IMG/VR virus record: IMGVR_UViG_3300031555_004294
Location: 192,001 to 256,000 of that record
Source of the DNA: a virus
Lineage: Duplodnaviria > Caudoviricetes
Reading direction: 5' to 3' (one strand)
DNA: 64,000 nucleotides
In this document: one piece after another, positions 52,780 to 60,749 of the stretch
How the letters are laid out: each line of letters begins with the position of its first letter
How positions within the stretch are numbered: the first letter of the stretch is position 1
Made by a program: the position numbers and the translations under genes
The notes under the pieces: model-generated
Databases searched by the model: none
Told to the model about the DNA's origin: nothing
The model's input: only the letters and a program-made list of their open reading frames with translations

Positions 52780-53193
52780 ATGGAAAAGAAAGTTTTTGAT
52801 TTAAAGGTAGAAGTCAATTTAAAAGTTACAGAAGACGATATTGAAGATATCATGGTAACAGCTTTAGAAGGTGGAATTTCTTATTGGGCGTGTCTTGATA
52901 ATACAAGAGAAGAATGGAAAAATTATGAAAATGATGATGACACACCAACTAGTATTATTGCAACTAAAATACTTCTTGATGGGAAGTCACTTTATTTCAG
53001 TGATGTTGAGGATCCTGATGAAATTTGGGAATTAACGTTAGACAAATTAATGATAAGTATTGGAACAATTATTTTACATGATGAACATGAGTTGAGTTGT
53101 TCAAATAATACTTTAAATTTAGATTGTTTAGATGCATGTCTAGCAGATTCAATCATACAATACGCACTTTTCAATGAGATAATTTTTGGTTAA
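52780..53193 (+). CDS. Conserved phage hypothetical protein
   Basis: ALEGGISYWA...DAxxADxIIQYALFxEIIFG; start moved to ATG 52780. Confidence 0.7.
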   Translation: MEKKVFDLKVEVNLKVTEDDIEDIMVTALEGGISYWACLDNTREEWKNYENDDDTPTSIIATKILLDGKSLYFSDVEDPDEIWELTLDKLMISIGTIILHDEHELSCSNNTLNLDCLDACLADSIIQYALFNEIIFG

Positions 53194-53224
53194 AACTTTT
53201 ATAATTCTTCTGGAGGAATTAAAA

Positions 53225-53398
53225 ATGAGATGTCCTAAATGTAATGGTGAAGTATTACTTACTGCAACTGCAACTGATAGTACAGGTGAAGACATTATTC
53301 TTCAGTATCATTGCGATTCTTGTAAGACAGAGTTAATAGAAAAAGATATTTTAGATTTGGATGGAACAAATTATGACTTAGATGGAATTTTAAGTTGA
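53225..53398 (+). CDS. Small Zn-ribbon protein
   Basis: GGAGG RBS; MRCPKC...YHCDSC. Confidence 0.65.
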   Translation: MRCPKCNGEVLLTATATDSTGEDIILQYHCDSCKTELIEKDILDLDGTNYDLDGILS

Positions 53399-53405
53399 TG
53401 GAAAT

Positions 53406-53815
53406 AATTAATCAGAGAAGTTGATGGTATCAGAGTAAAATAATGAATCATGAAATATAAAATAGTATCAAAATTGTATAATGAATCAATAATCTAGACA
53501 GTATCAATAATAGAAATGAATCATTCGAACAAATAGTATCACGTTGGTGTAATGAATCAAATGAACTTATAGTATCAACATACAGAAATGAATCAGAACA
53601 AGAAATAGTATCAGGAATACACAATGAATCAATGATATTAATGTAGTATCAACCCATCTAAATGAATCATTGTTGTCTACAGTATCATATATAAAAAATG
53701 AATCAACATGGTCAAATGGTATCACTTTCAATTAATGAATCAAATAAAGAAATAGTATCAAATACTTATAATGAATCACGATCACCAATACAATAGTGTC
53801 AGAGCGTTTCAATGA
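53406..53815 (+). ncRNA. Dual-repeat ~36-nt array 1 (TIGR-like guide-RNA array), ~11 units
   Basis: AATGAATCA at 53442, 53480, 53515, 53551, 53587, 53623, 53661, 53697, 53734, 53770 (variant at 53406) alternates with (AY)RGTATCA cores at 53426, 53464, 53500, 53535, 53571, 53607, 53645, 53681, 53718, 53754 (variant at 53795). Intervening spacers are unique and mostly 9 nt. The repeat structure is certain; the ncRNA/TIGR call is inference. Confidence 0.75.
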
Positions 53816-53858
53816 AAAAAAAGAATATACCCACCAAAGGATATATTCTTTTTTTTTT
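53815..53858. terminator. Intrinsic (probably bidirectional) terminator closing array 1
   Basis: A run, AAGAATATA-CC / GG-TATATTCTT stem, T run. Confidence 0.75.
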
Positions 53859-53894
53859 GTAAAAACTTCTAGTTACCAAGTTTCATCTTAAAAT

Positions 53895-59392: not shown

Positions 59393-59761
59393 ATGTTTAT
59401 ACGTGTAGGAACTGTAGAAAGATACAATGAGAAAAAAGATGAAATTCTTGAAAACTTTGGTGAGAAAATTTTAGAAAGAACTAAAGAAATAGTAGAAATG
59501 CTGGATGAAGAATATGGAAAGGACAGAGATGTCTTTAATTCTGATGGTGGATGGGTTGTTTTAATTAAAAACTACAAAGGTTTTGATGACTATGATGAAC
59601 ATTCAGAAACTGAAAGTCTATCAGAATCTGTGTATGAATATTGTAATGAAATTGATTTTGATCCATTTGTAGAAGTTCTCTATCTAGTAAATAACGAAAC
59701 TGGTATCACTGTTTTTATGCCAAAGGAAATCTTCGAGACAGAATTAAACGAAGATGATTGA
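59393..59761 (+). CDS. Hypothetical protein
   Basis: LDEEYGxDRD...DGG conserved-looking motif; GGAGG RBS. Confidence 0.65.
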   Translation: MFIRVGTVERYNEKKDEILENFGEKILERTKEIVEMLDEEYGKDRDVFNSDGGWVVLIKNYKGFDDYDEHSETESLSESVYEYCNEIDFDPFVEVLYLVNNETGITVFMPKEIFETELNEDD

Positions 59762-59775
59762 AAGGAGAGCACTCT

Positions 59776-60162
59776 ATGAATGTTCTGTTAAGGAAAATCA
59801 TAATTACATCAGACGAAGAAATTCAAATCCTTAATGAGAATACAAAAAAGACATTGTTTGGTAGAAATAAAGTTGTTGAAAATATAACTACTGAACAAGA
59901 ACACTATGAATATTGGATTGAATTCCATATTGATCAAGGTAGATTTTACTATGGTGAGAAAAAACCTATAGAAATTGAAGGTAGGAATGGTATTTACAAA
60001 TATCAAATCACTACTAGTCACACTAAACGTGGTCTTGATAAAAGTTTAGAAATTATCAGTGAAATTATGGAAAGAACTAAACTTATACATCCAAAATGGG
60101 AAATTGAATTGTATCAGGTTAAGAATATGCCATTCTATAGACAATTCGATAAAGATAATTGA
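59776..60162 (+). CDS. Hypothetical protein (last gene before array 2)
   Basis: AGGAG RBS before ATG 59776. Confidence 0.6.
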   Translation: MNVLLRKIIITSDEEIQILNENTKKTLFGRNKVVENITTEQEHYEYWIEFHIDQGRFYYGEKKPIEIEGRNGIYKYQITTSHTKRGLDKSLEIISEIMERTKLIHPKWEIELYQVKNMPFYRQFDKDN

Positions 60163-60185
60163 GACATATAATGGTGCCTTGTAAT

Positions 60186-60687
60186 AGAAAATCAATGTAA
60201 TCGACAGTATCAATATTTGAAAATGAATCACTAGAAGAGATAGTAACATAACTTATGAATGAATCAATATGTAAGACAGTATCAGACATATGCTAATGAA
60301 TCAATACTAATTACAGTAACAGTCACCACTAATGAATCACATCGGGTAACAGTATCAAATAAATATAATGAATCAAATAACTTGAAAGTATCAATTGTAG
60401 CTAATGAATCAGTGCACATTAATAATATCACAGCGGTAATAAATGAACCATAATTGCGGATAGTAACAGAAGGAAATAGTGAATCAATGTCAGGGAACAG
60501 TATCAAGAGGTGAAAAATGAGTCAGCGAGAATGACAGTATCATATGACAGCAACGAATCAATATATTAAACTCGTATCTTTTGTTCAAATGAATCATTCA
60601 TACGGACAGTATCATGCTAAATCAATGAATCATGGATGAAAATAGTATCAGTGACTTATAATGAGTCAAGATAAAAAACTCGTATCA
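60186..60687 (+). ncRNA. Dual-repeat ~36-nt array 2 (TIGR-like guide-RNA array), ~14 units
   Basis: AGTAWCA-type cores at 60206, 60242, 60278, 60315, 60351, 60387, 60424, 60462, 60499, 60536, 60573, 60608, 60644, 60681 alternate with AATGAATCA-type repeats at 60222, 60258, 60295, 60331, 60367, 60403, 60442, 60478, 60516, 60552, 60588, 60624, 60660. Spacers are unique and ~9 nt. Confidence 0.75.
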
Positions 60688-60705
60688 TTACAAATAAACA
60701 ATAAG

Positions 60706-60749
60706 AAATGACTAAATGAGATTTACTCTCATTTAGTCATTTTTTTTTT
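60706..60749. terminator. Intrinsic terminator closing array 2
   Basis: AAATGACTAAATGAGA / TCTCATTTAGTCATTT stem plus a T run. Confidence 0.8.

Follow-up and report, generated by a model that had tools for sequence, protein, structure and literature searches.

Dispersed dual-repeat TIGR arrays in a jumbo phage and the TasA-type protein encoded outside the analysed window

Described TIGR-TasA systems and the dispersed arrays

Dual-repeat TIGR-TasA systems, such as FpTIGR-TasA of Flavonifractor plautii, are phage-encoded. Their arrays alternate two 9-nt repeats with 9-nt spacers in units of 36 nt, are bounded by truncated edge repeats and close with a terminator; their protein is a solo Nop-domain one, with a coiled coil and no nuclease (PMC12045711). 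TasA proteins bind DNA via both spacers without cutting it and repress transcription in reporters (bioRxiv 10.64898/2026.09.09.750476); a structure of TasA with target DNA was also reported (10.64898/2026.08.11.744272). Faure et al. surveyed 5 kb on each side of tas (PMC12045711), TIGRFinder was likewise applied around tas loci, and orphan or distal arrays are unmentioned in both texts. Here, we analysed bases 192001–256000 of the 299,070-bp virus record IMGVR_UViG_3300031555_004294 (G000); this 64,000-nt stretch is called the window. It contains two TIGR arrays, very probably satellites of a single dual-repeat TIGR-TasA system of this phage; the effector gene and the third array of that system lie past the window edge. 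The components are as follows.

Window 53406–53816, plus strand: TIGR array 1 (satellite), 11 units, found by tandem-repeat and pattern searches
Window 60186–60696, plus strand: TIGR array 2 (satellite), 14 units, found by tandem-repeat and pattern searches
Genome 262481–262997 (extrapolated window 70481–70997), minus strand: TIGR array 3, 14 units, same repeats as arrays 1 and 2
Genome 263064–264113 (extrapolated window 71064–72113), minus strand: tas, 349 aa, good ribosome-binding site

In both window arrays, the 36-nt unit consists of one AATGAATCA edge, the 9-nt spacer A, one (A/C)(A/T)AGTATCA loop and the 9-nt spacer B; the spacers are mostly 9 nt in length, and a few are 8, 10 or 11 nt. 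The pattern AGTATCA-N8-11-AATGAATCA matched the 299-kb genome 22 times (13 forward and 9 reverse), and all matches fall within three clusters. The reversed pattern, used as the control, gave 0 forward and 0 reverse matches. Arrays 1 and 2 are real dual-repeat TIGR arrays, as the first-pass annotation of the window had recognised. Alternating 8–12-nt repeats, spacers of ∼9 nt and a unit of ∼36 nt are found in all three arrays (11, 14 and 14 units), and the truncated edge repeat and terminator expected at an array end are also present for arrays 1 and 2. The remaining hallmark, a tas gene within a few kb, is found for array 3 and is lacking for arrays 1 and 2.

All three arrays open with a degenerate edge-type repeat; array 1 starts with such a copy and ends with the 3′-truncated edge AATGAA. 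Because a degenerate copy of AATGAATCA opens the arrays and a truncated copy closes them before a terminator-like hairpin, AATGAATCA is taken as the edge repeat and AGTATCA as that of the loop. Each of the two fits xxxG-x-AUCA (AAUGAAUCA and AUAGUAUCA); by comparison with the description in PMC12045711, the G...AUCA positions would correspond to box D-like and box C-like nucleotides. Faecal-metagenome contigs identical to the window cover array 1 (one run) and the larger part of array 2 (two runs); among the sequencing runs listed for the region, none is an RNA run. The DNA contigs of the four faecal-metagenome runs contained no informative array variation.

The first-pass annotation had described the arrays as orphans, with no Nop- or IS110-like effector in sight. 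Within the window that is correct: neither tblastn with the Tas protein nor a profile built from 59 Tas sequences found any Tas-, Nop- or IS110-like open reading frame (ORF) there. The arrays are orphans only relative to the window, however. The tas gene is located 7 kb past its right edge, at distances of 10.4 kb (array 2) and 17.2 kb (array 1) from the two arrays; on the same strand, array 3 starts 66 nt after the end of tas, and the three arrays are spread over 18 kb. Since the window ends 7 kb before tas, the orphan appearance is an artefact of the window edge. The main value of this result is corrective: a guide array that seemed to lack an effector can be assigned to a tas gene a short way past the window edge, which is accompanied by its own array with identical repeats. 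The first-pass annotation had named this very finding as one that would turn the system into an ordinary TIGR-Tas one with satellite arrays.

As judged by both tblastn and the 59-sequence profile, tas is present as a single copy; the only match of the profile in the genome is at 263082–264014 on the minus strand. The Pfam Nop model (PF01798) gave no match in the whole genome, but this curated model is too distant from Tas, and its blank was not counted as evidence. With one tas gene in the genome, the best of the explanations offered by the first-pass annotation is that a tas gene elsewhere acts in trans on arrays placed at the 3′ ends of operons. The system belongs to an already known family, that of the dual-repeat TIGR-TasA systems. 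Different from the systems of PMC12045711, two of its three arrays lie beyond the 5-kb flanks surveyed there, and the satellite arrays are located at the 3′ ends of unrelated operons. The arrangement resembles that of orphan or distal CRISPR arrays used in trans, which carry the same repeat as the effector-linked array, are physically unlinked from it and are presumably served in trans; the dual repeat, the split spacer and the protein family are different.

The Tas protein and its surroundings

The genome-wide Tas profile search, a check of the kind that the first-pass annotation had suggested, leads to one TasR/TasH-like protein in the phage, the product of 263064–264113. In a phmmer search against the PDB, it matched TIGR-TasR (9mty_A) with an E-value of 3.8e-12 and TasH with 3.6e-7. 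The profile of 59 homologues gave E-values of 1.9e-42 for TasR, 4.3e-25 for TasH and 1e-6 for the IS110 bridge-RNA recombinase IS621 (PDB 8wt6). The alignment-based AlphaFold model of the protein has a pLDDT of 85.9 and a pTM of 0.81. In the Foldseek search of the PDB, the top 11 matches of this model were all TasH or TasR chains (probability 1.00 each), followed by IS110-family recombinases at ranks 12–22.

In the model, residues 1–30 have a pLDDT below 50 and residues 31–50 are of low confidence. Two long helices (residues 56–91 and 106–132) follow, and then the Nop domain; the helices are predicted where the N-terminal coiled-coil dimerisation domain is expected. No HNH or RuvC nuclease domain was found in the protein, for which Pfam gave only a weak match to PF02371, the C-terminal domain family of the IS110 transposases (E 0.034, below the cut-off). 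The Nop and coiled-coil parts account for ∼290 aligned residues of the 349, which leaves too little sequence for a nuclease domain. Owing to the lack of such a domain, the protein is classified, from its sequence and predicted fold, as TasA-type.

TaTasR (PDB 9mty) and SpTasH (PDB 21kl, 9w03 and others), the best matches in both sequence and fold, share with this Tas the GIGP helix-hairpin-helix motif and the C-terminal LGH motif. Both are RNA-guided nucleases, whereas this Tas, with neither RuvC nor HNH, is expected to bind DNA and leave it uncut. The IS110 recombinases have a distantly related Nop-like RNA-binding domain, and older annotation calls this Tas family 'transposase' (phrog_4285; weak PF02371). 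We rejected an IS110-family transposase identity: the N-terminal DEDD/RuvC domain (PF01548) was not found in the protein, and tandem guide arrays are present in place of a bridge RNA and transposon ends.

Upstream of tas and in the same direction are genes for one SleB-like cell-wall hydrolase (PF07486) and one DUF4314 protein; together with these two, tas seems to form a unit in which it comes last (genome 264151–265016, minus strand). An NAD-dependent ligase is encoded further upstream on the opposite strand, and a module of MoxR, one unknown protein and a metallopeptidase-VWA protein lies downstream of array 3. There is no nuclease or ParB-like gene among the neighbours of tas. The MoxR/VWA module was considered as a Tas accessory and rejected, as its G001 orthologues are ∼45 kb from tas, directly after the orthologue of the Zn-ribbon-like ORF. 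The spore-cortex-type hydrolase, together with the low G+C content and the faecal source, suggests a Firmicutes (Clostridia-like) host.

Arrays far from tas in related phages, and array synteny

G000 was compared with the long viral contigs that encode the three closest relatives of its Tas (G001, G002 and G003); the same two repeats are present in all of them. G001 (320 kb) encodes a Tas that is 63% identical to that of G000; in this phage, one array follows tas immediately and the other is 6.2 kb downstream. In G002 (264 kb, Tas 47% identical), one array follows tas and another is located 9.7 kb away on the opposite strand. In G003 (210 kb, 85% complete, Tas 44% identical), the 10 kb on either side of tas contain no array; the only one, of ∼35–39 units, is ∼111 kb from the gene. 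This long array is 1.3 kb in length (G003 9000–10480, minus strand), and a terminator stands directly after the G003 tas. Because the only array of G003 is far from tas, distant arrays must work if the G003 system works at all.

Among 80 related phage loci, scanned for 10 kb on each side, an array more than 2 kb from tas was seen in 4. Three other large Tas phages (159–211 kb) with similar repeats have arrays only beside tas. In two phages of ∼160 kb, the tas-adjacent arrays (L042:11000–12760 and L051:10900–12720; related repeats, GATAGTAACA and GAGTGAATCA) are ∼1.7 kb in length with ∼45–50 units, and they are among the longest TIGR arrays in this analysis. The first-pass annotation had called the organisation unusual. 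Distal arrays are indeed rare in other Tas phages, and they are a consistent, easily missed trait of this small jumbo-phage clade; the kind of system is unchanged, however, and is an ordinary TIGR-TasA one. Surveys confined to a few kb around tas will thus undercount guides, as TIGR arrays can sit from 10 to >100 kb away, and an array alone on a short contig need not be without an effector. What is new here is modest: arrays far from tas are found throughout the clade, and they coincide with rearrangement breakpoints.

The relatives also bear on the proposal, likewise made in the first-pass annotation, that the arrays are decoys or hijack guides for the Tas of the host or of a competing phage, in the manner of mini-CRISPR arrays. 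In CRISPR systems, phages carry guide arrays for foreign effectors, and this precedent is the argument in its favour; nothing specific to arrays 1 and 2 points the same way. The phage has its own Tas, with an adjacent array of the same repeats, and the same repeat pair accompanies Tas orthologues in four different jumbo phages. Foreign effectors are therefore unnecessary, and we give this proposal scarcely any credence.

The genes and transcription signals around arrays 1 and 2 are listed by window position.

52710–52753, called as terminator on both strands: palindromic hairpin of 18 pairs, AT-rich and perfect, upstream of the 52780–53398 ORFs
52780–53193, plus strand: small ORF, phrog_2355, function not recognised
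53225–53398 (53186–53398 in a longer ORF call), plus strand: Zn-ribbon-like ORF, weak Zn-ribbon matches
53821–53858, plus strand: hairpin ending array 1, AT-rich stem and T9 run, read by eye
53895–55736, convergent on array 1: large endonuclease, phrog_559, annotated as HNH endonuclease, E 9e-187
55851–56141: HU, Pfam E 6.5e-24
56490–57959: polymerase-like gene, 'polymerase' PHROG, E 5e-53
58787–58833, called as terminator on both strands: palindromic hairpin of 20 pairs, AT-rich and perfect, upstream of the deaminase unit
58869–59390, plus strand: dCMP deaminase, E 2e-28, after the hairpin and upstream of array 2
59393–59761, plus strand: ORF, function not recognised, between the deaminase and 59776–60162
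59776–60162 (59758–60162 in the synteny listing), plus strand: ORF, function not recognised, directly 5′ of array 2
60703–60745, plus strand: rho-independent terminator ending array 2, 19-pair stem followed by a T run in the terminator scan

Each satellite array shares its strand with a short gene cluster upstream of it and is placed directly after the last stop codon of that cluster and before a terminator-like hairpin. Array 1 begins 8 nt past the stop of the Zn-ribbon-like ORF, and array 2 begins 24 nt past the stop at 60162. The hairpin of array 1 was not called in the terminator scan, because it has too few G-C pairs; as the next gene converges on it, it probably terminates transcription in both directions. 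The short gene units that terminate in arrays 1 and 2 each begin at one of the two palindromic hairpins, and a topoisomerase II gene is located upstream of the first hairpin. In the sigma-70 promoter scan, the matches were not above those of shuffled controls, and no promoter was assigned to any array.

Between arrays 1 and 2 are the endonuclease, HU and polymerase-like genes. The gene content given in the first-pass annotation is roughly right: HU and the dCMP deaminase were borne out, the endonuclease that it called Hef-like is the one annotated as HNH endonuclease, the Zn-ribbon matches are weak and the polymerase match is compatible with the RNA polymerase fragment that had been proposed; the peptidase-like label at 58071–58781 was not confirmed. 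The deaminase region (58794–59347) has ∼15–20 times the metagenome contig depth of its neighbours, with many partial alignments and joints. This depth is uninformative on the phage, because the deaminase is conserved and common to other organisms in the samples.

At the ORF level, the synteny between G000 and G001 is high (45–90% protein identity) but rearranged. One block, which opens with the convergent endonuclease gene and takes in HU, the polymerase-like gene, the deaminase unit and array 2, comes after tas and the adjoining array in G001 and after the Zn-ribbon-like ORF and array 1 in G000. Conversely, the MoxR/VWA block comes directly after the Zn-ribbon-like ORF in G001, with no array between them, and after tas and array 3 in G000. 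Arrays 1 and 3 thus each fall on a synteny breakpoint, and the tas-adjacent array of G001 has its positional counterpart in array 1. At the position of array 2, after the orthologue of 59758–60162, G001 also has an array, and the gene order there is kept. G000 and G001 have almost no common spacers and no (0) common spacer pairs; the kept place of array 2 and its replaced spacers point to turnover under maintenance.

Within G000, one complete guide, ACATGGTCAA(A) / CTTTCAATT, is common to array 1 (unit 9) and array 3 (unit 7). From these sequence comparisons, recombination at an ancestral tas-linked array would have divided it or copied a part of it, and dispersal probably took place through genome rearrangements with breakpoints at arrays. 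TIGR systems are not known to have adaptation machinery. With its common gene order and nearly disjoint spacers, the G000/G001 pair should be useful for the study of TIGR spacer turnover.

A near-identical guide is common to the distal arrays of G001 (array B, L101 ∼4300–4340; ACTTGAATTG/TTGAATGGG) and G002 (L110 ∼1400–1440; TCTTGAATTT/TTGAATGGG), whose Tas proteins differ from that of G000 to the extent given above. It may mark a conserved target.

The same rearrangements could have left arrays 1 and 2 as decaying, unused relics that were split from a once tas-adjacent array. The G000/G001 breakpoints at arrays 1 and 3 and the location of array 1 in place of the tas-adjacent array of G001 fit such a history, as does the state of array 2, in which 8 edge repeats are exact to the 9-nt consensus and several spacers are 10–11 nt in length. 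However, the edge cores of array 1 are exact in 10 of its 11 units and its repeats are near-intact; the full replacement of spacers at a kept position implies that array 2 is maintained; and both arrays retain their start and end architecture and the terminator. Moreover, the only array of G003 is itself distant from tas. On balance, we regard decay as very unlikely. Rather, the intact array 1, the kept place of array 2 with its turnover, the distant-only array of G003 and the identical metagenome contigs suggest that the satellite arrays are in use.

A third possibility in the first-pass annotation was that the satellites serve a different, undescribed effector encoded nearby, for example by the ORFs at 52780–53398 or 59393–60162. 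These ORFs are directly upstream of the arrays and have no recognised function, and ESM Atlas feature searches with the two ORFs upstream of array 2 returned no usable match. When co-occurrence was checked, as had been advised, the ORF pair upstream of array 2 was found to be kept together with the array in G001. In contrast, the G001 orthologues of the ORFs upstream of array 1 are ∼46 kb from any array, and no homologue of any of these small ORFs was seen in G002 or G003, two genomes with the same repeats. As the repeats are identical to those beside tas, a second effector is not needed, and we consider its existence extremely unlikely.

Proposed mode of action and guides

In the proposed TIGR-TasA system, each satellite array would be transcribed as the 3′ tail of its operon. 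TasA dimers produced from the distant tas gene would bind the precursor, which would then be cut within the edge repeats into 36-nt tigRNAs. By analogy with described systems, the 39 guides of the three arrays would direct binding to 18-bp sites. As for other TasA proteins, the complex would block transcription or replication rather than cut the DNA (bioRxiv 10.64898/2026.09.09.750476). The repression role is taken by analogy from these proteins, because no target was found.

Several points weigh against this account. We infer that the satellite arrays are transcribed, processed and loaded, and array 2 is noticeably degenerate, with the irregular spacer lengths mentioned above. A hairpin separates tas from array 3, so even this nearest array may be transcribed apart from the gene. 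The processing residues are a further concern. In SpTasH, Y289 and H296 form the pre-tigRNA processing dyad (PMC13421893). In the HMMER alignment to SpTasH, H296 corresponds to His328, which is conserved in at least 90% of the homologue alignment; different from SpTasH, Y289 corresponds to Phe321, and Phe is the consensus of the clade. The change from Tyr to Phe makes autonomous processing uncertain, and a host RNase may be needed. The involvement of a host RNase in maturation was first proposed for TasR by Faure et al. (PMC12045711).

The lack of a target also counts against it: none was found for any guide in the phage and its three relatives, or in IMG/VR, which was scanned with one guide. 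For each tigRNA, 18-mers were used as queries in two geometries, spA+rc(spB) and rc(spB)+spA, where rc is the reverse complement. In the phage genome, no self-target was found at 0 or 1 mismatch in either geometry. Matches at 2–3 mismatches came mostly from AT-rich guides and were somewhat above those of re-paired controls, which are not strictly comparable. Cross-targeting among G000–G003 gave a few 1-mismatch matches, all from AT-rich guides, and nothing beyond chance. The guide common to arrays 1 and 3 matched 6 IMG/VR stretches in one geometry and 0 in the other; the 6 stretches represent 4 unrelated contexts, none of them with the real spacer length, and are at chance level.

The spacer G+C content is 28–35%, no different from that of the genome, and therefore gives no hint on the origin of the targets. 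Because the spacers differ almost wholly from those of the closest relative and self-targets were not found, the targets are more likely to lie in foreign, variable DNA, whether of competing phages, other mobile elements or the host, than in genes of the phage itself; this preference is a weak one.

A more elaborate possibility is that the guide repertoire is deliberately distributed in this clade of faecal jumbo phages. The arrays, as tails of different operons, would be expressed at different times or levels, giving one TasA changing guide sets during infection. As breakpoints for recombination, they would in addition reshuffle the genome and shift single guide units from one array to another. 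The operons concerned would be the small-ORF unit downstream of the topoisomerase gene, the dCMP-deaminase unit and the tas unit. We think it rather unlikely that the dispersal has this purpose.

One further observation concerns the MoxR gene of G001 (151340–152860). The MoxR-like AAA+ reading frame stops after ...LLKEGELN and is followed by a free-standing ORF of ∼250 aa and by ∼400 bp of non-coding sequence, after which the frame resumes with GGIPVPRRDE.... The interruption looks like an intron or an intein-free insertion with a homing-endonuclease-like ORF. The MoxR orthologue of G000 (P0001) is uninterrupted.

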